This document shows, in pieces, positions 12,125 through 45,150 of a stretch of DNA of 64,000 nt. Source of the stretch: Marsupella aquatica (Eukaryota; Plantae; Marchantiophyta); contig OZ316896.1 in NCBI GenBank assembly GCA_973895155.1, positions 13,372,549 to 13,436,548 on the forward strand, in the 5' to 3' direction. Numbering within the stretch: position 1 is the first letter of the stretch; each line of letters starts with the position of its first letter. A model generated the notes under the pieces. That model saw only the letters and a program-made list of their open reading frames with translations, was not told the DNA's origin and searched no databases. The translations under genes and the position numbers were made by a program.

Positions 12125-13010
12125 ACATTATGCCTGATCTCAAATGGTATTTATCAGACCTAAGCTTGTACTCGCCCCTGGCTTGTGAGTCTTACATCCA
12201 AACATTATGCTTTTATAATCCCAAATGCTATGTAGTGTGATCTATTTAAACATTATGCACTAGTGATCACACATATTTATATATATAGTGAGATCTAAGC
12301 TTGCAGGGCCTTGTTAGTCTCTTATCCAAACAATATGCTATGTAGTGAGATCTAAGCTTGTAGCGTCTTGTTAGTCTCCCATCCAAACAATATGCCCAGG
12401 TTATCACATATGCTATGTAGTGAGATCTAAGCTTGTAGCATCTTGTTAGTCTCCCATCCAAACAATATGCCCTGGTTATCACATATGCTATGTAGTGAGA
12501 TCTAAGCTTGTAGCACCTTGTTAGTCTCTCATCCAAACAATATGCCCTGGTGATCACATATGCTATAAAGTAGTGAGAAATAAGCTTGTAGCGCCTTGTT
12601 AGTCTCTCATCCAAACAATATGCTCCCTAGTTATCACATATGCTATGTAGTGAAATCTAAGCTTGTAGCGTCTTGTTAGTATCTCATCCAAACAATATGC
12701 TCTAGTTATCGCATATGCTATGTATTGAGATCTAAGCTTGTAGGGCCTTGTTGGTCTCTCATCCAAACAATATGCCCTAGTTATCACATATGCTATGTAG
12801 TGAGATCTAAGCTTGTAGTGCCTTGTTAGTCTCTCATCCAACCAATTTGCCCTAGTTATCACAAATGCTATGTAGTGTGATCTAAGTGTGTAGTGCCTTG
12901 TTAGTCTTCCATCCAAACAATATGCCCTAGTTATCACATATGCTATGTCATGAGATCTAAGCTTGTAGCCCCTTGTTAGTCTCCCATCCAAATATCATGC
13001 CTAAGTATCA
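12125..13010. repeat. 75-bp tandem minisatellite, about 11 copies
   Basis: Unit tgttagtctctcatccaaacaatatgccctagttatcacatatgctatgtagtgagatctaagcttgtagcgcct (starts e.g. 12369, 12444). The minus-strand ORFs show the matching 25-aa periodicity. Confidence 0.95.
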
Positions 13011-13124
13011 CATATATGCCACATATCACCATAGCGCCCCTTGCTTCCTTGCTTCCTTCAATCACTTGATATTTGATCACGTATGTGTCCTTGTTGACAG
13101 ACACACATAGAAGGAAGGAACCAG

Positions 13125-18922: not shown

Positions 18923-19839
18923 CGTTACTTTTCCCGATCGCAATTCGGTAACACTACTCAGAATGAATGACGCAAACTGCACACAATGCTCGAGAGAAAG
19001 CACGCGGTCCGACTGCCACACAGATTTAAGAGTTCCCGAGGCTGATCAAAGTGAATCAATTCGTCACAGTCGACCCTAAATCCACAATTTCGTCCTTCTT
19101 CCGCCGCTGAAAGCCGTCTTCAGACTTGATCATCAAGTTCAAAGCGGATCAAACGAGATTTCAGACCCACGCTAGGGCAGAATTGGATTGAATTAAATCC
19201 GAGTGGCAAACACGAATGAAACGTGAACAGTGACCAAAGCAGAAGCAAACGGCCAGAATGATCAAGGATTGCAAGAATTTGAGTGAGAGAGATCCCGAAG
19301 GAATGAAAGGACCAAACACAATTCGAATGACAACCAAATTCCGAGGGAAGGCAATCCACAAGGAATAAAAGATAGAGACGGCCGGCAGATGGAGGAATCG
19401 ACTATACAGAACATAACAAAAACAGACGGAATTGGCGCAGCAAATCTCGCTACAGAAGACATGCAATGTAGTCTTCTTTGTAATCTACCGTCTAACAACG
19501 AATCAATCATGCACAGCATCCCTCGGTTTGTCCTTGGTAGGTGAGAGTTCTGTTAGTGCAAAGCCCTTCTGCCTCCATGGATACCTCCGAGGTGGGTCCT
19601 GTGCTCCAGCTCTGAACAACTTTCTCTTTTCCTTTTTTCGCTTTTCAGTATCTACAGCTCCTGTTTTCTGGCTTGGCTTATTAGAATCGAGAGGACATCG
19701 ATCATTCGTAGAACACAATTTCTACCTGTTTGCCATATCCAATTCCCTCCTTTGCTTCGCAAAATTTCTCGGCTTCACCAACGACTCGTCTTCCGCCATA
19801 CTTTTAGCTTCCCTGGAAACTCTTCCACTCTCACACGTT

Positions 19840-20620
19840 TCGTGTCATTTGGGTCCATTCAAACAGACTTTGTGTCATTTTGTCTGGTGAGATGTTGAAT
19901 CAGGTTTTAGTGTCATTTGGCTCCACTTTAACATGTTTCATGTCATTTGGCTCCATTTACAGACACTTTGTGTCATTTGACTTGTAAGATGTTCAAATAG
20001 GCTTAGTGTCATTTGGCTTCACTCTCACACATTTAGTGTGGTTTAGCTTCACTCTGAGTAACACATTTAGTGTCATTTGACTCCATTGCATGCACTTTGT
20101 GTGATTTGGCTGCTAGGATGCTGAAATAGGCTTAGTGTCATTTGGGTTCACCAACACATGTAGTGTCATTTGGCTCCATTTGCATGCACTTTGTGTCATT
20201 TGGCTGAGAAGATGTTGAAACAGGTTTAGTGTCATTTGGCTAGCTTGAACACTCTAATAAATGTTGTGTCATTTGGATCCATTTACATTCAGTTTGTGTC
20301 AATTGGCTGGTAAGATGTTGAAATAGGTTTAGTGTGATTTGGCTGGTATGATGTTGAAACATGTTTAGTGTTATTTGGCTCCATTCTCAGACACTTTGTG
20401 TGATTTGGCTGGTAAGATGTTGACACGTGTTTAGTCTCATTTGACTGGTACTCTGTTGAAACGCATTGAGTGTCACTTGGCTCCACTTGGACACCTTTTG
20501 TGTTATTTGGCTGGTAAGATATTGAATCAAGTTGAGTGTCATTTGGCTTCATTCTTGGCTTCATTCTTACTGATCACACTTTGTGTCGTTGGACGCGTAA
20601 GATGTTGAGACAATCATCTC
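19840..20620. repeat. Composite satellite built on a GTGTCATTTGGCT core with two alternating subunit types (about 27 and 33 bp)
   Basis: More than 20 core copies, followed either by ggtaagatgttgaaacaggtttag or by ccattt.cagacacttt. Confidence 0.9.
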
Positions 20621-20749
20621 ACGAACCTTTGTGTTTCGGGCATGGTGAGATTTTAACATATGTTCTTGTCATTCCCTTGTCATTCGGCTCCCCTTGCACA
20701 CCGTTCTAATCTCTGTTACATGGAAGAACAACAGGGGCTCGAAAGCTGG

Positions 20750-21979
20750 AAAAAGAAGAATATTGTATTGATCAGATAAACAAAAGAGTGACGTTAATGA
20801 TGGCAAAGCTCACCACATGGGCCTCCGCAAGGGTCATCAAGCTGATTCCAAAAAATCAGGATATGGTTGACCTCATCAACTAGAGACTGCTAACAATGCT
20901 CACAACTGAGAAATTGATTGCTAAATTGTTGGCAAATAGGGTGAAGAAGGTGGCTTCTAAGCTCGTTGATCCACAATAGACTGGATTTCTTGAAGGTAGA
21001 GATATCTTGGACAACTTGATGACTTTTAAGCTGGCCCAAGAGTACACACAGCTAACAAAACAACCTCTGCTCTTCCTCAAACTGGACTTCACCAAAGCAT
21101 ACTACATGGTTGCTCACTCTTTCTTGTGGGCTGTTTTGAGGGCAATGAATTTTGGGGAGAACATGAGTACTCTGATAAAAGGGATGGAACAGACCCAGTC
21201 CAAAGTTCACATTAACCATAGTTTCATGGAAAGCAATTGATTTGCAAAGAGGAGTGAGACAAGGTTGCCCCCTCCCTCACTCCTATGCACTCCTATGCAC
21301 TCTTACTACTCAACCTCTGATGGAGTTGTTGAGAACCAAACTTGAGCTAGGGGAACTCCAAGGAATGAAGATCACAGATGACAACCGACTGTGCCAACAG
21401 CAATACAAGAAAGTTTCTGTAGCCCTGCAGGAGAATGTGCAAAAATCAAAGATAATTCCGTTGCACTTGAAGGACGGGATTTACCCTAGTTGGCTTCAAA
21501 CCACTGGTTGCAAGGTTTCTCAGGAGGGGGAGGTTACTGAATATTTGGGATCATGCCCAATTGGATATAAAGTCAAGCCCTCACATGAGGCTTCCTTTCT
21601 CATTGAGAAGTTGAGGAAACAACTGTTTCATTGGACAAACAGGAGCCTGACTATGATTGGCAGGTTTATTTTACTTAAACATGTCCTGCCAGCCATCCCT
21701 ACCTACCACTTAATGACACTTGAGCTGTATCAACCCGACGACAATTTTTGTGGGGGCCCTCAAGAACTACTGGATGCAGAAAGCCCTTATTGCCTGGAAG
21801 GAGTATGTCAACGCCAAAGGAGACAGAGGTCTGGAAATTCAGCCATTTGAGGAGTAAGCCCAAGCACTGAAGATGCGGCACATTGCTAAACTCATGCAAG
21901 GCGCAAACAGAAAGTGAATTAAGATCACTTACAACATCATTACGAGGGGAATAAATTCTGGACCTAGGAAGAGAGAAAG
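20750..21979 (+). mobile_element. Degenerate L1/Tx1-type LINE ORF2 (reverse transcriptase), 5' part
   Basis: VIKLIPK...IAKLLANRVKKV..KLVDPQ*TGFLEGRDILDN...LFLKLDFTKAY...RGVRQGCPL...EYLG..PIG...GRFILLKHVLPAIPTY, with stops and frameshifts. Confidence 0.9.
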
Positions 21980-22575
21980 ATATATGTCAAAGAGTCGACA
22001 CCCATTCAAGGCCAAGTCAATACTTCACATTGACAAATCATATACACAGTCAAGGCAGCACAGGTCAGGACAAGGAGATAACAACACATGGATGTGCACA
22101 TGCACCAAGTCATTTGTAGATAGTGAGATTAAAAAAATAATAAATCATGATCATTGTGAGGAAGAAACAGGTCCACAAATTGTTGAGGTCAATAATTAAA
22201 CTGTACATATATCCCAACATGCGTAAAAGATCAGGGTGGTAGTATGCGCATAAGAATAGTATGTTAGTCTATAGCTATGACTTCTTTGCTTTTTAAGATA
22301 TGCAAGAGATAGTACTAGGGGAGGCAACGGCGGGAAGGAATGAGGTCATAAGTTTTGTTAGGGCAGCTGCCAGGGTGGTGGTTACGTTAGTAAAACCTAG
22401 CTAATTCATGGAAGAAGTGAGTTACATATTTTTTAACAAAGTATCTGTAGTATAAGCTAAGGTATTAGTATAGGGCAAGTTTTGTATTTTACTGGTTGTA
22501 TGTAGGATTTTTACCATTTATAATTATTTTTATTTTTATTTAATAGTGTAGGTCATATGCCACCATTTATCTAGT
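21980..22575 (+). mobile_element. (GA)n-bounded non-coding element, unit A (probable internal deletion derivative of C-type)
   Basis: The first ~290 bp are closely similar to 23969-24260. It ends TGCCACCATTTATCTAGT-GAGAGAG, like unit C (TGCCACCATTTATCCAC-AGAG). Confidence 0.7.
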
Positions 22576-22582
22576 GAGAGAG

Positions 22583-23948
22583 TTCTATAAATATATCAAT
22601 ACGGAGATCACATCCTGATAAACTCAGGTCCCATTGTTACTCACCGCTATAGCTCATAGAATCATAAACATAATATAATATAACATCACAGATACTAATA
22701 CTTATATGCATATTTACCTACGTAAATTAACTTACATATACACATACTCATACCTTATCACCCAGGGCCTTAGGGGATCATGTATTGGATGACCCATAAG
22801 TTGTTGATGAACACGTTCCATTCATTTTCATTCACTGGTTTTCCTTAGAGCATCGATGAGTCCATTTTTCTAGGCTATAATTGGGCAACCATATAATGTC
22901 CATAACAAATCATCAATCCAGAAATATATTCTTGATATACATACAACCATTCCTTTATAAACACATTAGTGGTGATCCCATAGCGCTAGTTGTACATCAA
23001 ACTATTCGCTGGGTAAACTATTTATCCCGGATGGCTATACGATAGTATGCTCATGTGCCTAGTCTCAGGGCACTGAGTATAGACCATAGTTTTTCCTCAG
23101 GGATTATTAGACCTAGATAATCCACATCCCTAGTGCCGTTGTTCAGCCCCCGCCACTAGGTTGAAAATGATTTATATTTAAATCTTTTCAGGTACCATGT
23201 TTCTGTAACTTGTCCGGACTGTCACGGGGAGACATGGCCCAAGGAAAAACGAGTCCCTGGTCCCTACCCAGTCTATGTGAATCAAATATATTTGGATACA
23301 TTCATAGTTACAATATTAAAGAAATTAGATGGAATAGATTTTGCTATTGTTGTGCACCTTTAGACTATTGGTGGCCATTGTGATCTTCAGTCAGCGGACC
23401 CACGAGCTGGGTCTAGAGCAGTGTATAGTGATTCCTTGTCTGGCTTGGAGTAGTGTACAGTGATTCCTTTTGGCAAACCCCACACACTATCAATCAGAGC
23501 ATTACTGTTGGTGCAGACTTCTCATAACACCATTGCTCTTACGGGAGTCGGCATAGCATATAGCATCATAAAAGCTTCACACAACATCTTTCATGGAAAT
23601 GAGCAGAGGATCGGTTATCTAAAAGCTTCCCACGGTGTTCTCACTGACATTCATTCTGCATTAGCATTTTCCTGGTCATGTGTGGTGACTCGTTTAGAAA
23701 CAGGGGTTTTGGTGGACATCGCAGTGGCGGACAACTTTGGTGCCACTTATTGGGGAATATTTTTAGGGCATGGGCCCCAGCCCATTGTGTATGGTAAAGT
23801 ATTTCACTAGTATTTATACCCAGTATACTTATGATCATACGTATAATTATGACCATTACATGGTGGCCAGTGTGACCGTGATAATATCCCAGTAGTAAGG
23901 TCAATGGGTAGTTTTGTATTCTATCCATGTACTTCATATTTTTCTTAC
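22583..23948 (+). mobile_element. (GA)n-bounded non-coding element, unit B
   Basis: Lies between GAGAGAG (22576-22582) and (GA)10 (23949-23968). Carries the conserved structured cassette at 23047-23237. Confidence 0.6.
23047..23237 (+). ncRNA. Putative structured RNA cassette, copy B (family unknown)
   Basis: Four hairpins plus the conserved linkers AGACCAT, TTCAGCCCCCG, TTTCT and GGGGAG, shared with copies C and D. Confidence 0.5.
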
Positions 23949-23968
23949 GAGAGAGAGAGAGAGAGAGA

Positions 23969-24944
23969 TATGTCAAAGAGTCGACACCCATTCAAGGCCA
24001 AGTCAATACTTCACATTGACAAATCAAAAACACAGTCAGGGCAGCATAAGTCATGACAGGGATGTAACAACACATGGATGTACACAAGTACCAAGTCCAT
24101 TGAAAATAAAGAGATTCGAAACAATATTAAATCAAGATCATTGTGAGAAAAAAACAGGTTAATGAGTAATTGAGATTAGTAATTGAACTGTACATATATC
24201 ACAGCCTGCTTAAAAGATCAAGGAGGTAGGATGCACACAAGACTAATATGTTATTCTACAGTACTCCTAGTCATAGTTGGAGCACAGTAGATCATGTAAT
24301 ACATCCGGTAGAATGTGATGGATATAGTAAACTGTATAAAATCTAACGCAAAGTCAGAGGAATATATAACATAAGGTCAATTAGCAGGAATCAAAAAGAG
24401 TATCAGAAAGTAGTCAGTACAATATTATATATAAGGCAATGGTTATGATTGAATATAAAAAAACCAGTGGCTATATATTGTAACAGGACAGATCTGTTAG
24501 ACTAGGTACCATTATCAAATGGCATGGGATACAAATAAGCGATAAATCATACCATAATAAGTTAAAATCAGGTCAGGTGTGAAATATTAGAGTGATAGCA
24601 ATCTCTTATATGTGTGAGAAAATCCAGAGTCACATCTCAAGTGCCACTAGATCAAGAGGACCCTTGATATTGAAGGGGGTTATTTTCTAAGCGGTGCCTC
24701 ATATAAGCTGGTCAAGCAAACAGAGGTAGACCATCAACTGAAAGTAAAGAGCAGTGGACACAGACTGCAATACATCCCTGAGGTCGTCATTCAGCCCCCG
24801 TCCCCAGGGTGAATCAAATTTTCAAAAAATTATTCTTGTTATACGTTTCTGCTACCATTGAACCACGGCGGTAATGGGGAGCGTATATGTTGATACATGA
24901 TATAGGTGTAGAGTAAGTCTGGTAGTCAAGTGCCACCATTTATC

Positions 24945-24947
<3 letters not shown>
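23969..24947 (+). mobile_element. (GA)n-bounded non-coding element, unit C
   Basis: Starts TATGTCAAAGAGTCGACACCCATTCAAGGCC and ends GTGCCACCATTTATCCAC before about (AG)30 (24948-25008). Cassette at 24695-24887. Confidence 0.7.
24695..24887 (+). ncRNA. Putative structured RNA cassette, copy C (family unknown)
   Basis: Stems TGCCTC/GAGGTA, GCAGT/ACTGC, GAAT..AATTTT/AAAATTATTC and TATACGTTTC/GGAGCGTATA; core GGTCGTCATTCAGCCCCCGTCC. Confidence 0.5.
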
Positions 24948-25008
<61 letters not shown>

Positions 25009-25010
<2 letters not shown>

Positions 25011-26395
25011 ATAAAGACAGACACCCAATCAAGGCCATTGTCAAGATACCACTGTGTTCATACAGCACACATGATCAAGTCATATAGTAGGGTCTAGGGG
25101 TAGTCTTTTCATATGTCATTCACCAAGTCAATCTTGCACGGAAATCTGCACACTGTCAATGGCACATGGTGGAGCCAAAACAAGAGCAAGCATGATACAG
25201 TATTTTATTGGACAACTTAGGCCTGAAAAGGCATGACATTAGTGCAGGTTATAACCAGGACAGGAAAAAATGACTATAGGGAACATAAAAAGCGAGGAGA
25301 GTAAACAACTCCTAGATTCTCATGCATATAAAGATTAGAGAAACCAATGGTAGGATTCGACCCAGGTGAGGATACACAATGAATTAAGCTTAGAAGAATA
25401 TGATACTATTTATTGCTAAGGAATACAGGGTATGATAGGATTAGCTCAGCCGCTGCATCAACATCACACTCATCCACATTAGCATAGTTAGTCCTTAGTT
25501 AATAAAAAAAGTTATTTTACAGCAAGCATTCTGTTCATGATAAAACAGTATGTTAGACTAGCGATGTTTCATATTGGTATGTCATCCAAATAGAAGTGGA
25601 CCATCAACCATAGCTGAAATATAGCAGACATAAGAGCTATATTGCTACCCACATGGTCGTCATTCAACCCCCGTCCATGGGGCAAGACTAGTCAACAAAT
25701 GCGAGAACAAGTGTACTAGTTTATGCAACACATTTCTATTACCATTTGCCCAGGCGGTAACGGGGAGACTTGTCTCAGTTGGGGGCTAGCCTAAAAACAT
25801 TTGGAGCAATATATAAGTGGTATAAAGAAAGTTTAGAAGAAAATTACCTACTGTGCTTGTTCCATGTGAGTCACGGGAATGTTGTTGAAGCAGCCAGAGT
25901 CTTGTTCAAAACAAGTGTGTTAAACAACAACCACCAGATGTACAGGACAACATGCTAGGGAGCATGAGTGTGCATAAAGGACCAAGAACAGTAAACCTTG
26001 CATGTAGATGCTTTGCAGGGTCAGGACTAGAAACTACAAGATGGAAGAGAATGTTTGTGGAAGGAAGATCCAGAGTAGAAGATTTTGTTTTATAATGTTG
26101 AGGTGATGTGAGATGCCTCATAAGAAGCTGCCGTAGCCAGAAGTACTGTTTTAGGTTATTGTTTATGAAAGTGTATGGGAATGCTAATGACTGTCAGATC
26201 TAGGTTAAAGAAAAAGGGTGGTGGATGGAAGTATTTTTATATTAGGGTATACGTGGAGTCTGTGAATACTAACATAGACATTTGATGTATACATGGTCAA
26301 TCATTATACATGGTACTTTCCAGTGTGAATATTTTAACATTTTACTGGAAGTTTTCAGATGTCTAGAAAATAGTTGTTGCGGATATATCTCCTAT

Positions 26396-26397
<2 letters not shown>
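25009..26397 (+). mobile_element. (GA)n-bounded non-coding element, unit D
   Basis: Starts ...GACACCCAATCAAGGCC (related to the A/C left end) and ends CTCCTATCC before about (AG)18 (26398-26434). Cassette at 25565-25770. Confidence 0.65.
25565..25770 (+). ncRNA. Putative structured RNA cassette, copy D (family unknown)
   Basis: Stems TATTGG/CCAAATA, AATATAGC/GCTATATT, GACTAGT/ACTAGTT and TTACC/GGTAA; core GGTCGTCATTCAACCCCCGTCC. Confidence 0.5.
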
Positions 26398-26434
<37 letters not shown>

Positions 26435-26436
<2 letters not shown>

Positions 26437-28015
26437 CATGGACAGGCAACAAAGCACTGTCTACTCCTAAGTGCCATGACATCACACTCAAAGGATCAGC
26501 TACTCTGAAAGGATTAGTCAAAGGTTGATACCAAAAATGCAAGCAACTGAAGTTGAACTTTGGGGAAGGCAAGCTCCCATGCAAGCTGTCCATTGAGCAG
26601 ACCATTCAACTGTACCTATGCAATAATAGTTTGTCCAATCCGGGAAATGCAAACCTATGGAGATTCATGGCCAATCAAAGGGTCAAGAAACTCTTGGATC
26701 GAAGGACAGAGCAAGGTGGGTGGATTTTGAAGAGGTCATCAACCAAACCACCAGGGTTGGGAGTGCGGATTTCTCCCAGTTCTACAACAAATTGAAATAG
26801 ACCACAGACCTCATAGAGTGCAGCCTGCACGAGTGTGAGGGCTGGCAATGGGGGGGGAGAAAGAGAGGCTGGAACTTCCCCAACAAGGTCTGGGTCAACT
26901 TCAACAAAAGTGTGTTGATTGATGTCACTAAGCTTAATAGAAGGTGGGGACAAATCAGCCAACAACAAGAGTGGCAACAAAACTGGCAGAAACTGTGCGG
27001 CAGATGGATTTTTCCTAAGGTGCACTTTTTCATTTGGCATCTATTGAAATATAGTTTTTTCACAAATGGGAGGGCTAGCCATTGAGAAGAGGAATTCTCC
27101 AGGGGCAAATTACAATTTGAGCACACTGAACACTTTTTATTCAGCTGCAACACTGTCATTTCTAGATGGCAAGAGATTCACAGACTTGTTCGATACTCTA
27201 CGGCTCTGCAGTCACTCAAGGAAGACTTTATGAAGCACTAAATGATGCTATCCCCGTGAGCAAGAGGAAACCAGGTCCAATTTTCCTACTGATGGAACTA
27301 TGCTCTAGCATTTGGAAAGAGCAAAATGCGGCTTCTTACTCTCAATTCCTGGGGAGACTTCTGGGATGGGTGGTCTTGCGCCAACTTGACACACATCTCA
27401 AAGCCATGATGAGAATGTGTCATTCTGTGGAGACAAGCAAACAAATTAATAGGAAACTTAAGTCATTGACCAACTCCGTGTTGTCCTCAAACCCTGGGAG
27501 ACTACTGAAAGCCCTATTGCTACAAACACACTAGATGAAGATGACTGAAGCGACCAACACCAAGAAAGGAAGAACTTATATGGCCAAGGACAGGTTGACG
27601 AAGATGAAGACTGAGTGCACTAGGATGACGCATTGTACTAACATGCCATGGAGTGGTGGCTACCAACATCAAACTAGACCTAGCTGGGGGTTTTGGGACA
27701 TGGGCTGGGGCAATTGTACTAGTAGATCACACTTTTAAGATAGTCCCAACAGGCAGCAAAACATGAGGTGGAATAGGATTCAGGATAATGTGAAACAGAA
27801 TACGAGGCAGAATAGAAGGAAGATGAATTTAGATGTTTTCGGGGCCATTCTTCAATGATTGTTCTGGATTGTGCGGCATGATTAGTGTTTTGGTCCCGTG
27901 TGCCCTTTGGCCCCCTGGTCTAGTGCCCTCTGTGACCTTTGCTTGGGTGATTTTTGCCCCCTTGTGTGTTATTGAGGCTTTGCAGCCCCCTTTTTCAAAA
28001 CAAATAAAATAGCAA
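26435..28015 (+). mobile_element. Degenerate LINE, 3' part (post-RT region, zf-RVT-like segment, 3' UTR and A-rich tail)
   Basis: The reading frame resumes ...GPRKRE|SWTGNKAL...GKLPCKLSIEQ. Later EHTEHFLFSC..RW and IWKEQN resemble the L1 C-terminal region. A-rich end caaaacaaataaaatagcaaa at about 27995-28017. Confidence 0.7.
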
Positions 28016-28736
28016 ATGGGACATCTTTCACACATGGATATAGAAAGCCAACCCTGGTAATGTCTGGGTAGAACTGAGAGTACTAGTCTTGGGAAAGACT
28101 CTCAGTATGGGTTGAATCTAGAGCTAACCCTCTCAAACCTTTCCTTTGTACTTTCTTGAATCTTGTGAACCATACAATCCCATGGACCAGAACATCCTTT
28201 GCACTGTCACACGCTCACATTCTCCATGCATTTAAAGCTTTGACCTTAAAACTTTGACCTTTGTGATATGTAATGGAATTGACTGTCTTTGAGTTAGTTT
28301 GAGAGGCTAGAAAAGATTCTTCCAGCAAGTTTAATGCACCAACTTTCATTAAGAATGGAGACTGAGATAAGCTTTTCCAATCTTGACTGTGCATTGGGTT
28401 GCGGTGTAGTATCACCAAGCACCATTGGTGATTCTCATCACGTGGTATACTGAAGATAGTTCCTTCTATGACTTCAATTTGAATTTGAAAACTGTCTGCC
28501 TAAAACTCCTCCTCCCTGTCACTGTCTCAAACACCCGTTTTGACACAAAAACCTCACTCAAGCTTGGTGACTTCATTCTTGTTTTTGCTCGTGCTCTAGC
28601 TGTTCCATCACCTTAGTTTTGGCTATGGCAACCTTAGTTGGAGGAAGAGTTAAAGGATGTTTGTGCCAAAGGAGGCAGATCATTTGTGCAAGGGAGGTAT
28701 AATTATAGGCATTGTTTAGCAGAATGATGTCTATCT

Positions 28737-28817
28737 CTTTCTCTCTCAAATCTTATCATCTCATATGCATTGATTGATAGATTGTGCATGTGAGATGATA
28801 ATATTTGAGAGAGAAAG
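28737..28817 (+). other. Near-perfect ~34-bp hairpin (pre-miRNA-like or palindromic relic)
   Basis: CTTTCTCTCTCAAATCTTATCATCTCATATGCAT pairs with GTGCATGTGAGATGATAATATTTGAGAGAGAAAG, with one mismatch and two G-U pairs on the + strand. Confidence 0.55.
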
Positions 28818-29859
28818 CGGGAGAGAAAGAGCTAGATAAGAGCTGAAAACTTAGTGTCATTTTTAGGGTTTGGGCGGATCGGGTTTTAGGATGTCATCTC
28901 TCCGGGCATCTCTCTTCATTTGATGAGGTTTAGGGGTATCATCCCTAAGCCTTTTACCTTGCATTCATAGTATCAATGATCCTTGTAATGGCACCTAGCA
29001 GGATTCCTAGATTAAAGTTTTTGCAAAGTTACTTTTAAATATTGGACCTGGTATTAGACTTGGAAAACTGTGAAGAAAGGATCCTCTTCTGTCAATTTTG
29101 ATATTAATGTTTGCCATACAAGATGTGGTACCCACATCCTATTACATTAACATGGTTTATCATATATGCAAAGCAGTTGGACCTAAGGTTGCAGCCGCTT
29201 TATTGTGAAGCCCGTCCCCCCCGCTCCCAATAAAAAATTAAAAAACATGTCTGATCACATGTGCTATATCACTATAGCACCCTTTGTTTCCCTGGATCCC
29301 CAGGTAGTTGTCCCTGCAGACAAGAGAAAGGAAGGAATGATTGATCTTGGTCTAGAGCCGGGTCTAGAGCCCTCACTGTGCGCCACAATAGCTCATGAAC
29401 ATTCAAAATTTGACCAGTAATAATAATTATTCTGGATGATTATTCTTCATACTTAGTTACATATTTTAGTAGCACAGTTTTTGCTTTATTTGATTGTTTA
29501 CCAAATGAATGAGATTTTCTTGCTGAGTGCAATCCATTATTTGGGGTATTATTAAAAATCTTTTAGAAATACCAACCTAGAAAATTTGAGCTATTAAAGT
29601 GTGTCTTAGATCGGAGAGAGGGCGCGGTAGCGTGGTTGGATGGGAGTGTGGATTAGGATTAAGTAATTAATCCTGCCTTGCCACTAGAGGAGGCAGCTTT
29701 GGAACCCAAATGTCCGTAGACATTGACAAATGGCTTCTTAATGGGCCAGGTTGGTGGGTGGTTCATAGAGTTATGGATAAAACTGAGTTAGAGATAGTGA
29801 GCTAGCTCTCTTCCACTTGAGGACTGGAGTTTGGAACATCCCTGAGATGTACTAGAAGA

Positions 29860-31206: not shown

Positions 31207-31599
31207 AGGAGCTGGATTGACGAGAACTTCATGCCTGGATGATGGGAGGTACAATCGACGGTGAAGTGATGACAGGTGACCTGAAGGTGGGAGCGAACGA
31301 ATCGATCTTCAATCGAGCTTAGCATAACTGAAGGCTTTGAGATATGGGCTTGAAGGAATTCAAGCATCTTCAGAAGCTAGGCACATGAGACTTTCAATTG
31401 TAGATGGCACGCCGTACGTCTTTGTATGTAGCTGACATGCGTATTAGCACTATGGATGTGCTGATAGAAAACTGAAGTCATTTGAAGTTTCATGCTCTTA
31501 CGCATTGAAACACGCTAATAATTGTTGAAACTGGAGCCATTTGAAGTTTGATGCTCCTGCGCATTGACACACGTTAATAATTGTCTTTTGTTTCAATAC

Positions 31600-31860
31600 T
31601 TTACATTTCATGCTTCTTTTGTTTACTTGGGTGAAGCACCTCAGGGAGGCCTTCACATTTCATATATGCTTCTTCTGTTTACTGGGTAAAGCACGGGGGC
31701 CTTCACATTTCATGCTTCTTCTCTTTACTGCGTGATGCACCTCACTCAGGGAGGCCTTCACATTTCATGCTTCTTGTTTACTGGGTGAAGCACCTCAGGG
31801 AGGCCTTCACATTTCATGCTTCTTTTGTTTACTGGGTAAAGCACCTCAGGGAGGCTTTCT
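31600..31860. repeat. About 50-bp tandem repeat, about 5 copies
   Basis: acatttcatgcttcttttgtttactgggtgaagcacctcagggaggccttc repeated. Confidence 0.85.
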
Positions 31861-34800
31861 TGCAGTTTGAGCCTGTATTCTTAACGTGAGTCGCTGAAGC
31901 TGGGTTCGAAAACGTTAACTCGCCCTGAATTCGAGTGAAAATGATGGTCAAGTCACTCGGGATTGACCACTTTACAGAAAGCTCTAATGGCCCCCAACTT
32001 ATTGTAAAGCCACACTCAGTGAGAGGCCTTCCAGCTCCCAAGGCCGCGCCCTCGCTCAAGCCCGCTGTTTCGAAAATTGGGAACACGAAAACAGTCTTTT
32101 ATCCTGTCACGGTGTTGTCATGGTGTTCAGTCCCCAAGCTTGATTTCTTCTCTTCCTGACGTTCTCAAGCGGCAGCCGCATGAGTAAATTCCGGATACAA
32201 ACACCTGCAATCGTTCTCCGTGCACGGTAACACTCCGATCCCGGTTGTACCGCCGTCAAACACCAATTATAAAGGATTTGATCCTAGTGATTATTTCAAG
32301 GATTGGTCAGTTCAAGTTACGTGACGCCACGGGTTACAGAACCGTCTGTCAAGGCTCCCTGAACGCTCGCGCTTTGGGAATCGGCATTTAGCAAGGAGTA
32401 CATCAGGTTAACGATTACGTTCGAAAATTTGCTCTCAGATTACAAAGGAAACCATGTCTACTATCGTGATCTCATGTTCACCGTGCCCCAAACGAAGGGG
32501 AGAAGTTTTCCATGGTGAAACCCAAATCCTCGATACTGTTTTGGAAAGTAGACACAGTCTGAGAACACCCACGTCAGTTGCATGTGTAATGTCGCTCACC
32601 GGACAACACAAAGCAGTTCTGATTGAGAATCGTGGGATTGTATCGAGTTGTTCACGAGGAAAATCAACCCCGAGCATCTTTAACTGTAAAAAATGTGTTT
32701 GAATGTAAGCTTAGGAAATTAAAGTAGAAACCAAGGTTGAACGACGATTTTTGGAACAAACCCAAAACAGGACCCAAAAAGTTATTTGCTTTGCTTTGGT
32801 TTTTTTCCCTCAAATTGATGGATTAGTGTTTCCTTTAATTGAACAGAACTAATAGTCAATTAAAGCATTAGATTTCGTCCACTGCCCACGGTTGAGACTC
32901 TGAGCTTTGCAATTGTCTGGGTTGAAAGGATTATATTAAGCTAATATATCACCAGGTGCTTTACCACTCATCCTCAGGCTTAGGATTCATCTGAACGTGC
33001 ATTTCACCATAATTGGCACCAAACAGTAGAGTTTTGTTTATCCACTTAACAGGCTTACCAGTTCCTCGCTATATGTTTTGTGTGATCCAAACGTTATTAA
33101 CTAAACCCAATCATATCTACACCGATGCCGTGGCAGGTTTCAACTGCCTGGTGTCCACGTTGGCCGGAGCGGCAAAGTCTAACGAATTTACAGCTTGGGT
33201 GAGACATATCCTCTCACTGTTTGGGGAATGCATTTCAGAAAGGTGCTTTTGCCCAATCCTAGAATGACGGCCAAAAGTAACTGAAGATTGATATCCTTCC
33301 ATCTCCTCAATGGCGTTGTCGAATTAATGTCATTTCGACTACGGCCCTGACCAACTCCCAACCAAGTTCTCAAGCAACCCAGTCATTCATCTACTTCCTT
33401 GACCGGCGCTCTTGTCTCGTCTTTTCTGTCTCTTTCGTTTAGCAAGCTCAATAATCAACCGATTCATCCCTTCACCTAGCATTATTTAATAAACAATCAG
33501 ACGTTTCATCCGACCACCGGTAACTGTATCTTGACGTGCAATTTACCGCCATTAGAGGAAGAAGAGGGTACCCTTAGCCCCTGCTTGACTTGACCTGCCT
33601 TGCCTTGCCTTGTGAAGATCAGGAGTAGTGTGTGATCGAACTTGATAGACAGGATTATTCTGGATTGCGTGAGTGTACTTCCGTGTAACCACTGCGATAC
33701 TTCAGAAGTGAAGTTGGGAAACCAGGAGACTCAAAATAGTAGATCTCTTGATCCGGACTTATGGCGGAGTGAGGAAGATGTTCAGTATAATTGTACCTAC
33801 AGTAGAAGACCTGATAAACTGAAAGTGCAAGCAATCTCAGCAGCATTAGCAATGGACTAGCTACGTGGTTGATTGTACATCAGAGGATTTGAACAAGCAA
33901 TATATTGTACGTGGATGTCTCCTCCCAGTTGGGCTATCGGCTATAATAAGGGAGACCTCAGTTGCCTATTGTGTTGCATAAGCAAGTTTGGAGAGAGTAG
34001 GCATCGATCCAGTACTCACCCCGAATGTACATCTGCAACTTACAGTACCGTTCCACACGTCTGCGGAGAGCTAGAGACTCTAGGAGAGTGACAGTGATAT
34101 CCAAGTTAAGGTATGAATCTCGAGGTAGAATGTCAGGAGCAGTGGTTGGCAAGTTGGATATACGACGGACCAAATTGTGTTCAAAGTTTCAAGTAAGAAA
34201 GAATGGAAGGGCTGGAACTGCTTTTGTAATAACTTGGAGATTGGCGAGTTGTAATTAGTACGACTGCCGACTTTAGTAAAGCTGCAAATTATGTCAGAGG
34301 ATCGAGAGATCGAAAACGATTTGGTAGATAATTTGGTGACTAGCACGTTGCAATTACAATGTACTCTAAGTATTACTGACGACATTGCAAATCTGCAAAG
34401 AAGAGGATCGAGGGTTCGACAAACATGTCGTCATAATTTTATTACATGTATTTGGACTGCTGCTTCGTCCCCAAAACAAATATTGCTCATTGGCGAGCAG
34501 CGATTGAGTATTCTAGATAGCCGTCTCCGGCCCACCAGGCAGGGTAACTTGCACGGCTTCAGCTACACATGGACATTCGATTCACAACTCCACGACGTTT
34601 GATTCTTAGTCAAGGTAATTCATTTGAAAGGCAGCAAATGATGTTTAGAGCTCTGTGATCGATCAGAAGATGTTAGATGCTGCAGTATTCAGTTGACCAT
34701 AATCCTAATCTTCTCGACATACTGATGTGATTGCACCTAGCTGCTGAATTCAAATCTTTCAGTGTCTAGGTGTCAGTATTTCAGAATGTCTATCATGTGA

Positions 34801-35599
34801 AAACTTCTAAGCAATTTTACGTAATTAGAAATGGTAGATTCCTTTCTAGCTATGTATCCAGATCTTACGAATACTCTTCTAAATTTCTTCTTTACTTGTA
34901 CAGAAGTCCAGAGGCCAGACACAAGTCTCGAAATATATCATCTACTCATTGACGGTTTATCACCATCGTTGTATATACTCTTCAGTCTACAAATGCAGCA
35001 TTAATTCGTAAACTAAATAATGTATGTATTCACTATCAGCTCCAATAACCCGCCTCACTCCTTCGATGGGACCGAACGTTCCACATTTTTCCTGTAGTAT
35101 TGACTGTGTCTTGTGAATGTCTCCGGACCAGTTAACTCGTTTAGTGGCTTCTAAATCCTTGCAATCGTATATAGTATTAGCGTTAGACGACCTTCTGATT
35201 TGCGCAACCCGCAGAGAGAGTCCTAACATCAGGTTGGGACATTAGATGGCAACCAAATGAATCCTGACTTCCAATTATGTGCAAATTTATAGGTGAGTGC
35301 TGCTTTGGTTTCCTCAGATTCGAGAAGAAATAGACTCAGGATTAAATGAATAAATTTGAGGTACTCGGCAAGTAGACCACTTGTGAGTAGAATTGAATGC
35401 CTTTCCGGAAAGCCTTGAGCAGAAAAAGCACGAGACAAACTGTCTAGAGAAAAGGTCTGGATTTATAATCTTGTAAGAGGTGCCCTATGAGCTGAACACG
35501 GGGCCGAGAAGCTGATTTCTAGTCTAATTGTGACAAAAATTTGTTGACAGATTGAATCGTGTGATCAACTACCTGTAAATAGTCTAGTAGACTCGGAAA

Positions 35600-38500
35600 A
35601 TGAATATGACCGGGAGGGCAAGAAATGAAGACCAATCTAGTATATCAATTAACGTCGACGCTGCAGTCGATCGTCCTCCAAAGCAGAAGATGAAACTGGA
35701 TGAGGACAGGTCTAAGAGTCCGACATCGAGCGACACTACAAAGCTAAGTTCGCCGCAGAGGTGGTCTCTGGGTATGGACAGGCCTGAAAGACTTTCGAGC
35801 GAGACTACGAGGCTGGAGACAGACAAGTCTGTGGGTTCTGGCATCCTGGATTTCTACCCGTCGTCCAGCATGAAAACGGTCAAGATTGGCGAATTCGAGG
35901 ACGAGACTGTAGCGTGTCACAGCCAGCTCCAGTTGGAGCAGTCATACGGACTAGACCCACTGGCGATTTTCAAAAAGGTGACCGAGGACGAAATTAAAAA
36001 GAGGGCGCCGGAGCAGAATATCACACTTTTCGCATTGAGACTGGCACTAATCGAGAAGTCGGCGAGCGGGATCGGTACGCTCTCTTTCATCTGGGCCAGC
36101 ACTATCCTTTTGGGTGGCTTTGCATCCAATCTGAACCCAGTGGATTTCATAGTGATCACGCTGATACTCGTCACGGAGGGAACCAGGATTTTCACCCGTA
36201 GCAGGGAGCTCGAATGGCAGCACCTGGCATCCAAATCCACGGAAAAATCACTCACTCACGAATCCGAGAGAAGCTTGAAGGTCCCCGAAAACTGTGGTGG
36301 TGGAGAATTTACGAAATTCGGAGGAGCCAGCTCAAAGCCCGAAGAGGAGCCCATTCCATCATCGGAACCACCAGGAATAAACTTAGAACGGGCTCCCAAA
36401 GCTTCGTACAAACACACCACGTTTGCAGTCTCAGATGAGGACCTCGAGAGCTGTCAGATTAGTAATGCAGGCTATAACATTCAGCACACCCCGCACCTGG
36501 TTCCAACAGGCAAGACTCCAGGTGAAAAGAAATCGACGAGCAATGACATTACAGACTTCGAACTCGAGAAGACGGTGCTCGGCACAGCCGATGCGAAGAA
36601 CATCAAACGAACGTGGAGCGGCAGATTAGTGCCCATATTGCCTGGCCGGTGCAGCTCTATCATCTCAACGAGGGGAGTCAGTGCCATCCTGTATTGGATC
36701 CAGATCACCTCAGCAGCAATATGTCTGGCTCTCTCAATCTGGAGACTGACGCAACAAGAATACAATCCGCCTGCAGTTCCCAAACAGGATACTCCAGTAA
36801 ATCTTTACACGTCGTTGAATATCTTCTACACCCTCGCGCTCACGGAAGCTCTTCTGTTCCTGCTGGAGCGAGTCTACTGGGAGTACAAGATGAATTACGA
36901 AAAGCTGGTGCTGCAAGTGAGCAAGAAAGCGGATTTGGGAGGAGGAAATCAGGAAATGATGAAGCAGTTCTTCTACGAGGTTTACAAGAAATGCATTGAT
37001 GGAAGCGTGTTCGACGGGCTATCTATGGACATTGTCGAGTACAGCTTGACGTTGCTCCAATCAGACAACTCGTTCGAACAGCTGAATGGCCTTAAAATGC
37101 TATGGAAGATCGTGGATCGATACGATGGCTTTTCTTTGGATGCGTTGAGACGGACGGGGACTGCACCCGGAGTGATCGAAAGGTTGGTGGAGATGTTGTC
37201 GTGGCGTGGAACCCTCGGTGGAACCGATCAGGACGAGATTCGCCTGGCAGTTGCGGCATTCATATGTCGGCTGGTGCGGTACAACAAGAACTGCTTTAGA
37301 GTCGCGGCAGTGCCCGGGGCCATGGAGGGGATTCTTTCTCTTCTCAGACCGCATGAGCAAGATCACATGATTCCTAGACTGGATATCCCGACAGATCTAC
37401 TCTCCTCAAAACGAGCAATGATCGCTCTTCGCTTAGATGGGTTGCGCATCCTCGTCGCTCTAGCAAGGGATCCGGTGAACTTGCTGAAGATTGGCGAGAC
37501 ACGGGGGCTCGTTCCCATCCTTGTGGCATTCATCGCAGTCAAAGACCTTCATGCATTCAGAGAAATGGGAGGCTCCGAACTGAAAACATTCAAAAAGGTC
37601 CTGCGACTACTAAAAATGTTGTCGGCGGCACGGAACGCGAGCGGGACTATACTCCGGCCCATGATTGTCAGGGTGGTATTTGCCATCGCCAGCATGAGGG
37701 ACATTCTCGAGTTTGGAGACTATCATCCACAACTTCAGTGGATGGCAATCGAGATCCTCAGTAACTTGACATTGGACGACAACATTAGGAGATCAATTGG
37801 GAGTACGGGTGGTGTCATCCGGAACTTATTCACGCTGTATGGCAGAAACCTGGACTTGTCAAAAACTCTTTTCCTCTCAGAAAAGGACAAGAGAGCAGAG
37901 AAGACAGTTTCGAAAAGAGCTGGGGATGCCCTTAACCTCCTGGCGACTATGTGCAGGAAGAATTGCTTGCGAATGATGGATCTCCAGGATGGAAACGGCA
38001 AAAAACTTTTCATTCCAACTCTATTGACAATGTTGAACGAGTACAGAGAGCACACCATCTGCGCTGCCAAAATCCTTCGAAGCCTAATGGAGTATGGCAA
38101 CTGTTCTCAGAAGCGAGCGATTGCAGTATGCGTTGTGAGAGTCGTGAGGCTTACCATGGGAAGCTCGAGCCCAAGAATGCAGGAGGCTGTACTCGGTCTT
38201 GCGTCCCGAGTGTTCACTATCCTCGAACAGCGAACCTACGACCAGGCTTTTGAGAACGTGGATCGGACTGAGCTCGTTCGGACTCTCCTCAAAAATCTGG
38301 AGTACAATCCCCTTGGATCCTACAGGTTGCCGAGGATTCGTCGTCACAGCATTGAGTCAATACTGGCTCTTGTCAATCGAGACCCCAGCTTCTTCGCAGA
38401 GTTCATGAGCGATGGCTTGCTGGAGAAAAAGCTAATGCAGATGTTGGACACCGTCTGTGAAGCCGAGGACTTCGTAATCTTCTCTGGAGCTGAGGGACTC

Positions 38501-38635
38501 AACAGACACTCCATCACGATGGAAGATCTCGTCCAACAATCTATCCACGAGGTCCGAATTCTTGATCGAGAACGAGAAGAGATTCCATCCAAACCCGTAG
38601 AACTTGGTATTAAACAAGTTCCTAAATTACATTAG
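35600..38635 (+). CDS. BLE2-like / ARM-repeat superfamily membrane protein, 1011 aa, single coding exon
   Basis: 3-kb open ORF. APEQNITLFALRLALIEKSASGIGTLSFIWASTILLGGFAS...EGTRIFTRSRELEWQH and LNIFYTLALTEALLFLLE are family motifs. TM segments are followed by helical ARM-like repeats (GVIERLVEMLSW, KIGETRGLVPILVAF, SIGSTGGVIRNL, PRIRRHSIE). Confidence 0.92.
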   Translation: MNMTGRARNEDQSSISINVDAAVDRPPKQKMKLDEDRSKSPTSSDTTKLSSPQRWSLGMDRPERLSSETTRLETDKSVGSGILDFYPSSSMKTVKIGEFEDETVACHSQLQLEQSYGLDPLAIFKKVTEDEIKKRAPEQNITLFALRLALIEKSASGIGTLSFIWASTILLGGFASNLNPVDFIVITLILVTEGTRIFTRSRELEWQHLASKSTEKSLTHESERSLKVPENCGGGEFTKFGGASSKPEEEPIPSSEPPGINLERAPKASYKHTTFAVSDEDLESCQISNAGYNIQHTPHLVPTGKTPGEKKSTSNDITDFELEKTVLGTADAKNIKRTWSGRLVPILPGRCSSIISTRGVSAILYWIQITSAAICLALSIWRLTQQEYNPPAVPKQDTPVNLYTSLNIFYTLALTEALLFLLERVYWEYKMNYEKLVLQVSKKADLGGGNQEMMKQFFYEVYKKCIDGSVFDGLSMDIVEYSLTLLQSDNSFEQLNGLKMLWKIVDRYDGFSLDALRRTGTAPGVIERLVEMLSWRGTLGGTDQDEIRLAVAAFICRLVRYNKNCFRVAAVPGAMEGILSLLRPHEQDHMIPRLDIPTDLLSSKRAMIALRLDGLRILVALARDPVNLLKIGETRGLVPILVAFIAVKDLHAFREMGGSELKTFKKVLRLLKMLSAARNASGTILRPMIVRVVFAIASMRDILEFGDYHPQLQWMAIEILSNLTLDDNIRRSIGSTGGVIRNLFTLYGRNLDLSKTLFLSEKDKRAEKTVSKRAGDALNLLATMCRKNCLRMMDLQDGNGKKLFIPTLLTMLNEYREHTICAAKILRSLMEYGNCSQKRAIAVCVVRVVRLTMGSSSPRMQEAVLGLASRVFTILEQRTYDQAFENVDRTELVRTLLKNLEYNPLGSYRLPRIRRHSIESILALVNRDPSFFAEFMSDGLLEKKLMQMLDTVCEAEDFVIFSGAEGLNRHSITMEDLVQQSIHEVRILDREREEIPSKPVELGIKQVPKLH

Positions 38636-42202: not shown

Positions 42203-45150
42203 TTACCATGCTTCTACCCTCTCATTTGTTTGATCAATAGTGTTCACGAGCCTTCCACCTTTGGCCTTCCCTTTGCCTCGCTTCTTCGGAACTACTATAC
42301 AATATTCTTGATATTGTACTGGTGGAGTTTCTACGACAGGCTCACTCTCATGATGGCCATTTGGAATAGCTCCCGCGCAATCATTGTTGTGCCCGTCTGT
42401 ATCAGGTGCCTCTGGACCAGCAGAGGCAGGCCTTGAATCCAGTACAACATCTTCACGATCTCGTAGGGTCCTCAAGATTAAGGTTTTGAGGAAGTTCATA
42501 ACTTGCACCGCATGCATCAGTGCTGTAAGAGGATCGGCCATCTGCACGTCACCAACACTTACAATGTTAATTATGGATCACTGTCTATAAACGAAATATC
42601 TTCAATCGCACAGGTTATGGACCATATCACTGTCAATAAACGAAATTTCTTCAATCGTACAGGTTAAGGATATTCTAAAGACCCATTGACACCATGGCGA
42701 GCATACCTGAGTCATATTGGGAGCGAAAACCATGGCGATATTGCGGGCATTCATCTTATTGACCTGTTCCTCTTGAGCAACATCTGCCATCAAATTGACA
42801 GCCCAGTCCAAAAGGGCTGCCTGTGTAGGAGGGAGCAGTTTCACTAGCTCCACACATTGCTCCTCGGTGTGACATTGCATTACTTGCTCTGGTGAAAGAG
42901 AATCCAGCACTCCTCGTGGTAGCTCCCTGAACCAAGCCTGCCCAACCCACGAATCGTCCAGAACGTCATTTCATCTCTTTCGTGTTCAATATGCGAAGAG
43001 CCAAATGTTGACAAACAAAAATCCTACGCACTTAGGCAACTGCAGGGAGCAAGACCAAAAAGACAAGAGGCAAAGCGCATGGCCACAACGACCACCAATC
43101 CTATGTCAACACTGCTTCTCAAAAAGTTCCGTAATAGTGGTATCACGATGGTTCGAAGGGACTCCACGGCCCACGACGACTGGCTTGATCTGGCATGTCA
43201 TTATGCTCAGCAGATTGTGCAAAAAGTCACTTCAGGAGGACACCCGGTAAGCAATCACTACATCTCGTTGTAAAAAGGTTCTGCCACTTATCTGGACAAG
43301 ACACCCTGTCTGACACGTCTACAGGACCAACCCAAGCCCGGGACGACCGGCAACATGACATGATCTTCCTTAAACTATGAAAGAACAGTACGCCTCCGAC
43401 ACAACCAACATAATTGTGTCATGACGAGCACTGCGACAACTCGAACCTCCTATTAAACATAATACCCAACAGTACCCAACGGGCTCCTGTTGCTACCTAC
43501 CTCGCTGGAAACGCTGCAATCGAGGAAAATGAAAACGTCTCGACATCTACCAAGCAAGTACCAAAAGCTACAGACGACCTGCTATCCCAGCTTCTGGCCA
43601 TTAGCCGATTCCCTTTCTCAGCTTAAGTCGTAAGAAGATACATCAAGAACCCGTGCCAATCTCACGGAATAACGAGAAGACTGTCATCTTTTCGCTGTAG
43701 CACTTGGCCAAATTCCGACCGAGAGAAGACTGCTAAGGGCTAACATGGCTAATGAGAGACCTATCGACCACAGCATGCCCTCACGTACCTTGATGAGACC
43801 AGCAAGACAGTGAAGATCGATATCGTTCGGAACGATGCCTTTATTAAGCTGCTTCCTAGCGTGCTCTTCATGGATGCTTTCGGCGTTGATCCTAAAGATA
43901 CCTTCAACCTGCGGAATTCGAAGCACAGAAAAACAGAACGGTGTCAACAGAAGTGAGACAGTCATAATGCCGACACTCCCATGGCAAACTTAGCTCGCAC
44001 TCCTTAAAGGTGTCAACGAGATAATCACATCTTAACAGAGCCAACCTCGGCAAGTTCTGGCTTTCCGTTCCCCAAAATTCAAGAAAAGAAGGAAAACCCA
44101 CAACTCCCACAAGTAATCCAGTAGACACACATCGCGAGTAATCCTAATCAAAGGTTCCTAGCGGTCCAAGTTCCAGAGTGACTAGAGACAGACGAATGGA
44201 ATCCAATTGTGCCACAAACCTTCATGCCTCCTTGGATATAGAGTGCTTCTTGCATCAGAAGCAGAATGGTCGGAACGCTATTTCCCTTCGCATCGTAAGA
44301 ACATTGCATCGACTCCGCCGAAACACCAAACACGCTCGCACTGCGACAGAAAGAAAATAATTTAACTTCCCAAGCAGGGCAGGAGAATAGGGTGGCCCCC
44401 ATAATTCCAGCTTCGTCGATGAAAAACCCCTGCAGCAGAATTCTCTGAGCAGAGCTACGTCTCTCTAGCAACCTTCCGGGGGACCACAAACCAGACTACT
44501 TCGAATTCCAACGAGTAGATTGAATGGTTACTACGTATTCAGCTACAAACGCAAGAAGTGAAGGCATCAACTAACCTGGCGCTAGGAACCCTTCTAGGGA
44601 CTTCGACTTCAAACTCCACGGGCAAGCCGAGAAACCCATTGTAGCGGTCGAAGGTGACATGAGCAACATGCTGCACATTCGTCGGCCAGCCAATGTCCAT
44701 GTTGCATTCTTCGTCGGGGGCCCTGCACGTGAGCAGGGAGCGGCGAAAGGCAGCCAGCATGAGGGCCAGCATCGACAGCTGGCGTTGAGCCCTTTCGTGG
44801 TCGCTTTCTCTCCTTCGAGTGACCTCTCCGCCATTACCGCCCCCATGATGATTATGATGCCTGCTCACCACCATTTCACCTCCCCTTTCCATGATGTGCT
44901 CCTCATAATCTACAGTACTTAACCGGTTGCTCCCACCACTACGCACCTGATGGTGATGGTGGTGTTGGTGGTAGCGAGGCTGTTGTTGCTCTGATACACC
45001 CATGACCGTGTGAATGAGAGGAGATGATGGATTTCCAACGAAGTCGTCGGAGTCTGATTCGTCTGAAGTATACTGTCCATTGCAACTGTAGTCATCAGAA
45101 TCCGTGTTATCAGATGGGTACTGACGCCGAGAAGGAAGAGCTTCCGTCAT
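42203..45150 (-). CDS. ROPGAP: CRIB-domain Rho GTPase-activating protein (RopGAP), about 461 aa
   Basis: Exons 45150-44576, 44340-44220, 43908-43789, 42937-42707 and 42541-42203 (GT-AG, in phase, 1386 nt). CRIB motif MDIGWPTNVQHVAHVTFDRYNGFLGLP; GAP motifs EGIFRINAE, HCLAGLIKAWFRELP and NKMNARNIAMVFAPN; C-terminal ERVEAW. The start could lie further upstream (acceptor at 45252). Confidence 0.95.

Follow-up and report, generated by a model that had tools for sequence, protein, structure and literature searches.

Covarying structure conserved among gene-free repeats at GA sites of the liverwort Marsupella aquatica

We analysed a 64,000-nt stretch of plant nuclear DNA from Marsupella aquatica (contig OZ316896.1), hereafter the window, whose positions are counted from its first letter. 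Within it, a long interspersed nuclear element (LINE) is interrupted by an array of four elements, A to D, which are multi-copy and without inverted ends or coding frames, and three of which (B, C and D) keep a common fold in a module of 200-230 bases. The first-pass annotation of the window had described this module as an unrecognised structured RNA, conserved by covariation in three divergent (GA)n-bounded elements. The three are diverged repeats that carry no genes and have inserted at GA sites.

A LINE interrupted by four gene-free elements

The host of the array is, judging from its reading frame, a decayed L1-like LINE on the plus strand. Its left part (20845..21979) matches RVT_1 with an E-value of 1.3e-9 in a read-through frame, and the frame resumes in its right part (26435..27500, end not mapped). 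The residues ...GPRKRE precede the break and SWTG... follow it, and the 4.45 kb between (21980-26434) are occupied by A, B, C and D. As comparison material we used four public runs (two organism labels, two studies), none registered as RNA, in which 73-87% of the words of 21900-26500 are present. The evidence on other copies comes from two alignments of public contigs, in which summed depth does not equal copy number. Among the matches listed, a related LINE contig (88-92% alike) passes directly from 21981 to 26476 in runs X1 and X4, the array being absent; by sequence, this empty site is a paralogue rather than the allele. An array of 30-36-nt and 102-nt units (19824-20659) immediately to the left of the LINE has members that share the word GTGTCATTTGG, which is also found once to the right of the LINE, near 28850.

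The four elements are read on the plus strand. Element A (21980..22577) has C-type ends and is without the module, and model R1 gives no match in it. Element B (22586..23948; 1363 nt, with a left edge placed to within a few nucleotides) is flanked by GA runs and tiled by related contigs, whereas C (23969..24947; 979 nt) was delimited by contig depth, loose ends and an end motif, and D (25009..26397; 1389 nt) by sequence comparison and contigs. Repeat calls place (GA)10 after B (23949..23968), (AG)30 after C (24948..25008) and (AG)18 after D (26398..26434), the GA runs after A, B, C and D measuring ~3.5, 10, 30 and 18 units, respectively. The description of the elements as (GA)n-bounded holds for their right sides, each of which is followed by such a run, but fails at the left junction of the array, where only the native purine-rich codons of the LINE stand, with no expanded GA run and without a long target duplication.

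Over their left ~300 nt A and C are 83% identical, and their right ends share 20-31 nt. A similar short word was seen by eye ~10-25 nt inside the left end of all four elements. Terminal inverted repeats were sought in A-D and found in none of the four (p 0.42-0.95), nor were direct repeats detected between the end 100-mers of any of them, a test that very short ones would escape. The ends fold weakly (-0.5 to -4.7 kcal/mol), and a search of the elements for a pseudo-long terminal repeat (pseudo-LTR) found none.

These ends bear on the possibility that the elements are copy-and-paste DNA transposons, either Replitron/HUH-like or recombinase-mobilised, in which the fold would be a single-stranded DNA origin or a protein-binding site. 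Replitrons, as portrayed in passages of PMC10288648, occur in liverworts, have non-autonomous copies near 1 kb and mostly leave no target duplication, a description that defined ends with neither inverted repeats nor a clear target duplication would fit; the nearly equal folding of the two strands, described below, also agrees with a DNA element. However, the same passages give Replitrons short direct terminal repeats and a single terminal hairpin, whereas the elements here have neither, and their fold is internal and multi-helical. Since one-sided GA runs would also be unexpected, we consider such transposons rather improbable.

Run X3 holds a further C-type right end followed by a short GA run and then an element-like start, indicating that stacking occurs elsewhere too. 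Related copies have a right arm that seems largely missing from C itself: contig depth is at single-contig level at 24882-24914 and rises again at the end motif, and the loose ends of C-family contigs resemble the right arm of A. These loose ends show a longer, A-like right arm in most C-type copies, so that the module usually lies in the middle of the element there, as it does in B and D. One 11-nt word from the right end of C (24926-24936) recurs inside C just upstream of the module (24637-24647), with a chance expectation, by our own estimate, of ~0.1.

The shared module and its fold

The modules were located by folding and covariation, in B and C also by contig depth, and no strand was assigned to them. 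They lie at 23010..23240 in B, where a depth peak coincides, at 24660..24887 in C, where the part common to many copies runs from ~24682 to 24881, and at 25530..25774 in D, and start 424-691 nt from the left end of their element. Each contains a conserved core, which in B is the top of a central hairpin (P3) with its 12-nt loop, recognised by pattern match and likewise left without a strand (23135..23152, 24783..24800 and 25656..25673 in B, C and D). The core pattern has exactly three matches, all free of mismatches and all written on the plus strand (at 23135, 24783 and 25656), against a chance mean of 0.14 at up to three mismatches; none of 100 shuffles reaches three. An ordered four-block pattern is found only at 23081, 24728 and 25598, in agreement with the earlier claim that the three elements share one block order. 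The modules are 54-62% identical, compared with 47% in shuffles (maximum 52%), whereas their 200-nt flanks are at background (46-50%). The observed/expected CpG ratio is 0.56 in the modules and 0.30 in the flanks.

The stems listed in the first-pass annotation are present where it had placed them, and they pair while their letters differ. The full alignment of the module comprises the three copies B, C and D. On one of two sequence-only alignments, 88.8% of the 125 cells of a named 44-pair structure pair (shuffles, 79.9 +/- 1.9), and 14 of the 44 pairs have changed on both sides, compared with 5.6 +/- 1.8 in shuffles, none of 500 of which is as high. Slid controls gave 41-52% pairing and 0-2 doubly changed pairs. 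Pairing and double changes exceed both slid controls and the shuffled ones that the annotation had named as a possible refutation, with the qualification that the structure was derived from the same three sequences, so that these figures are not probabilities. Folded singly, B alone gives a strong signal (z -4.14, compared with -0.99 for C and -1.61 for D). Fifteen hairpin segments outperformed their shuffles on both strands (Fisher p 1.8e-8 on plus and 3.3e-6 on minus) while six control sets drawn from other parts of the array gave p 0.07-0.84, although this test is generous, as the segments were picked around hairpins. RNAalifold, applied to the other sequence-only alignment, predicted 45 pairs and recovered P2, P3 (the central stem), P4 and the region of P5; it missed the first-pass H1 and added a 10-pair long-range helix that we consider untrustworthy.

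The module might instead be a neutral relic or a by-eye artefact, combining shared ancestry with chance hairpins. The z values of C and D, which alone fold no better than shuffles, and the number of sequences, three, would suit that idea. It is opposed by the preservation of the module between flanks at background identity, by the double changes above both kinds of control and by contig depth that steps up and down with the borders of the module in all four runs (see below), and we give it very little credence.

The module of B consists of P0, a bulged P1, P2, the central P3, P4 and P5. P0 is an extra hairpin with an AT-rich loop, 14-17 nt upstream of P1 in all three copies. P1 (H1 of the first-pass annotation) has a second register, in which URGAC forms a bulge of 5 nt (C and D) or 7 nt (B) and which shows one double change, G-C to U-A. 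The block G(T/C)CGT(C/T)..., previously taken as a linker, is really the hairpin P3, an overlooked helix that proved to be the best supported of all: its 7-8-bp stem covaries and is followed by a Y-Y mismatch, a pair of invariant C-G base pairs and a loop of 12 nt with CCCC at its end. P4 is very variable, and P5 combines an invariant UUC/GAG stem with a GGG bulge. The CCCC of the loop and a GGGG could possibly form a pseudoknot in all three copies; these bases never vary, and hence carry no covariation evidence.

In both B and D the best partner of the P5 loop lies at a distance of 18 nt downstream, and two of its pairs have changed on both sides (about p 0.03). In B this candidate pseudoknot partner lies at 23251..23256, 18 nt past the last block and without assigned strand, and the spacing is the same in D. 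Equally good scores occur at 3 of 711 positions in B and 6 of 623 in D, and the C-family flank does not fit. We regard the predicted 18-nt pairing in B and D as a hint. In C, the P5 loop (24864-24870) can pair with the conserved right-end motif (24934-24940) at 7/7 positions on the minus strand and 5/7 on the plus strand, the minus-strand value being reached at 1 of 58 positions.

Catalytic RNAs typically have invariant unpaired loop and bulge bases around variable stems, an arrangement also seen in the module. It could be a self-cleaving ribozyme, of a new class or far-diverged and hepatitis delta virus (HDV)-like on the minus strand, that would cut read-through or tandem transcripts into units for retroposition. 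We compared it with the features of HDV-like ribozymes, some of them taken from passages of PMC3774820. Read on the minus strand, all three copies have an L3-like heptamer (with one change in C) and, 8-9 nt after it, a GG, a reading that would explain the invariant CC in the P5 loop, and a P1-like partner 18 nt off forms 5/5 pairs in B and 5/6 in D, with two double changes. The absence of P4 and a long J1/2 are tolerated in R2 ribozymes, according to the same passages. However, the HDV-type P3 is whole in B only (3/3, compared with 2/3 in D and 0/3 in C), P1 has 5-6 bp instead of the about 7 given in those passages, the J4/2 equivalent is 3 nt too long, D has a U at the position of the catalytic C, and the 18-nt partner is misfitted by the C-family flank. 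No Rfam ribozyme model matched over the module at E-values up to 10, a Hovlinc fragment at 4.2 being noise. The cut would moreover fall mid-element, and an HDV-like fold would leave most of the conserved module unexplained. A ribozyme is the leading alternative to the favoured explanation, though a somewhat unlikely one.

Other copies, homology searches and neighbouring features

Among the contigs aligned to C in run X1, the summed depth is 108 to the left of the module, 305-1063 over 24684-24859 and 175-218 up to 24881, and drops to 30 from 24882; exact-match contigs stand at ~30 in this run, and the shape of the depth over the module is alike in all four runs. Among the matches listed, depth also peaks on the modules of B and D. 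Since the depth piles up on the module and drops at its edges, the module is the conserved core of a multi-copy family, and the contig sequences support the view that, over many copies, it is better kept than other parts of the elements.

The C-family contigs show 34 substitution rows, none of which falls at 24787-24803 or in the last two blocks. Fifteen are at or next to paired positions, and 7 of these keep or repair the pair, among them the three most widely shared changes (24722, 24831 and 24841); for 24841, loose ends show that the pairing partner has also changed. Among the matches listed, contigs with a different P2 (H2) or P4 (H3) sequence still show a hairpin there by eye.

In Rfam 15, no family reached its gathering threshold in the window (fragments at E 0.25-7.9 were far below), and the module is unknown to Rfam. 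A degenerate coding frame, which the first-pass annotation had named as a possible refutation, is also ruled out, as the block spacings differ modulo 3 and each of the 18 frames contains 1-9 stops. No recognisable open reading frame was found in the elements, including any for IscB, TnpB or a recombinase. A plus-strand frame through and after the module of B (23160-23810) has 2 stops in 216 codons (p 0.018 versus shuffles, in one of six segments tested). Among the matches listed, one of these stops is missing from related contigs in all four runs, and another copy lacks a 33-nt duplication, in frame. No protein relative was found for this frame; its single match (E 2e-4, seven summed stretches) was rejected as the translation of a tandem repeat.

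Pattern scans outside the window returned 13, 1, 0 and 96 viral loci (80 of the 96 being retrieved and searched), 5 metagenome loci and 35 loci in prokaryote genomes, all of which look unrelated. The flanking blocks were present in none of the 13 viral loci, the last block in none of the 5 metagenome loci, and an upstream GACCA in 1 of 36. Model R1 found at best a 16-22-nt seed in 71 loci, nothing in 80 more, and nothing in 141 genomes of one bacterial phylum, the last search being without a positive control. With blastn, nothing meaningful was obtained for C against plasmids and phages, or for B and D against plasmids. These viral, metagenome, prokaryote, plasmid and phage sets hold little plant DNA and are therefore silent on other liverworts. 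Near 2500 of one searched locus, L045, the core pattern hits, by eye, the T arm of an apparent bacterial tRNA gene. We found no description of such an element in the literature; Repbase, Dfam, supplements and subscription journals, outside the scope of this search, may list the repeats.

The resemblance of the core to a tRNA variable region plus T arm, as in L045, raises the possibility of a captured host-type small RNA gene, or of promoter-plus-RNA cargo, that drives or protects transcription of the element. An AT-rich, TATA-like stretch seen by eye 25-27 nt before P1 in all three copies would be consistent with it. This stretch is, however, the loop of hairpin P0, and no shared upstream element was seen. 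The likeness to a tRNA is partly forced by the search pattern, and the tRNA-like stem no longer pairs; the module is without a box B, B and C have internal T4-T5 runs, and ARAGORN finds no tRNA. We therefore judge such cargo to be quite improbable.

Elsewhere in the window, an intronless ARM-repeat-type gene at 35591-38635 (plus strand) encodes 1010 amino acids (open reading frame 35603-38632); proteins of the leafy liverwort Calypogeia fissa are nearest (69-70% identity), followed by those of Marchantia and Riccia (52-54%). A CRIB/PBD match at 44539-45273 on the minus strand resembles the first exon of a RopGAP. Three plus-strand repeat copies of at least ~130 nt with a tRNA-like head, at 13137, 14621 and 56895, are probably a SINE (short interspersed nuclear element) family. 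A 40-nt inverted repeat at 28730-28824 has TC-rich and GA-rich arms, 88% complementary, around a 15-nt loop. Further tandem arrays at 12179-13101, 31599-31868, 51984-52877 and 61714-62010 have periods of 75, 51, ~250 and 94 nt, respectively.

Known systems and the favoured explanation

The lifestyle of the elements matches that of known elements, yet they qualify as members of none of the systems named here, and the fold itself is uncatalogued in Rfam 15. With non-autonomous Penelope-like elements (Chlamys/Naiad), as described in parts of PMC8557442, they share a microsatellite bias, head-to-tail insertions, obscured target duplications and non-coding dependants, and with non-LTR retrozymes, as outlined in portions of 10.64898/2026.07.22.740005, an RNA fold as the conserved core. 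Unlike both, they have neither a pseudo-LTR nor a hammerhead, their targets are GA rather than CA/C/TA, and their tandems mix different families where those of the two systems repeat one element. The hammerhead/retrozyme core, sought as CUGANGA with GAAA and a cleavage triplet in order, was rejected, since a single CUGANGA occurs in one of six strand-copies, is not conserved and has no Rfam match.

A conserved middle domain between differing flanks is also a property of the SINE superfamilies CORE, Ceph, Deu and Meta, and A resembles an ends-only derivative of the kind known from bipartite non-autonomous LINEs (both from passages of PMC5786205). Compared with SINEs, the elements are long (1.0-1.4 kb), begin on the left with neither a tRNA nor a 5S head and keep structure more than sequence. 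A tRNA-derived SINE, which would have a tRNA-like head with boxes A and B at its 5' end, was rejected: the first 150 nt hold no box A in any of the four elements, and a box-B-like word is present in D only. R2, R4 and Dong, in passages of PMC3774820, combine target-specific insertion into repeats, of which Dong cleaves within TAA repeats, and a non-coding part that contains a structured RNA. In them a coding element has the ribozyme at its 5' end, whereas the fold here is internal and several HDV features failed. The pineapple Ac-mMITEs of PMC8449440 are likewise plant, non-coding elements clustered in dinucleotide repeats, partly GA, but in the sections of that source bearing on them they have terminal inverted repeats and Mutator-type duplications, and the elements here have neither.

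In bacterial mobile elements, ornate covarying RNAs of ~200 nt are known (HEARO, RAGATH-18), several of which proved to be nuclease guides, according to parts of PMC13565253. The module resembles the HEARO/IscB omega RNA (RF02033) in its size (~210 nt), its multi-hairpin form, its setting in a mobile element and the word GACCA after the first hairpin. It might accordingly be a guide or bridge RNA scaffold steering a trans-supplied nuclease or recombinase to GA repeats, and the invariant P5 blocks, one pyrimidine-rich and one purine-rich, would suit a GA/TC target. In contrast to HEARO, the conserved words are not co-linear, and the module is not at an element end, standing 424-691 nt from the left end with no IscB/IsrB frame downstream. 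Kinship with HEARO was tested and rejected: there is no HEARO match by Rfam, profiles of 20 cyanobacterial HEARO RNAs and of the module miss each other, and model R1 misses the RNAs in 25 HEARO loci, with one 9-bit match (E 0.89) elsewhere in one of them. Furthermore, no part of the module tracks the ends of its own element better than those of other elements, and no IscB, TnpB or recombinase frame accompanies it, leaving a guide with slim prospects.

We tentatively favour, with a confidence somewhat short of even, the explanation that the module is a cis-acting RNA domain of non-autonomous GA-targeting retroelements. A fold kept in plant nuclear repeats across families with unalike flanks points to a function under selection, and this one array has the one-sided microsatellite tails and the lack of inverted ends found in non-autonomous non-LTR retroelements. 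Green plants are known to contain tandem non-autonomous retroelements with a bias for microsatellites, as reported in parts of PMC8557442. The whole element would be transcribed, and the module would fold into five to six helices, probably closed by the CCCC/GGGG pseudoknot. The folded module may then load the reverse transcriptase-endonuclease of an autonomous partner, which would nick a GA/TC site and reverse-transcribe from the nick. A GA run would be laid down as a 3' tail and could serve as the target for the next insertion, so that arrays would grow. By analogy, Penelope-like or restriction-like-endonuclease non-LTR elements are candidates for the partner.

A transcript would probably be of the plus strand, as one-sided GA runs would suit a plus-strand RNA with a 3' tail. 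The first-pass argument for this strand, that non-Watson-Crick positions are mostly G-U on plus, proved weak: the 138 anchored pairs comprise 124 Watson-Crick, 8 G-U, 4 A-C and 2 other pairs, and 3 of the 8 G-U are a single invariant pair seen in each copy. The minus strand folds almost as well, with structure energies differing by at most 3 kcal/mol between strands, and it is favoured by the A-C mismatches in the upper part of P5.

Several observations weigh against a cis-acting retroelement RNA. Wobble pairs and energy leave the strand unsettled, and it is the left ends, not the right, that are better conserved among families, which would fit a minus-strand RNA. The covariation is limited by the alignment of three full copies from which the structure was itself derived. 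Of the 15 substitution rows that fall on or beside paired positions, eight would break a plus-strand pair unless an unlisted partner changed too; the pair-breaking rows are mostly in one or two contigs, with 24725 in four and 24779 in three. No reverse transcriptase-like remnant was found in the frames of the elements. The module lies mid-element, and the recognition signals of retroposons are usually at the 3' end. What speaks most strongly against a strict requirement in cis is element A, with C-type ends and no module; A either moved while lacking the module or shed it once inserted.

From the first-pass reading, a conserved covarying structure in non-coding repeats that is neither in Rfam nor a reading frame stands. 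That the module represents a new class of catalytic or guide RNA in land-plant nuclear elements, processing the transcript or programming GA insertion for a novel class of transposon, is in our judgement unlikely. The model of the module provides a handle for fishing the autonomous partner from liverwort genomes, and an RNA of 250 nt is easy to test for cleavage. The elements may explain the origin and growth of GA microsatellites in these genomes.

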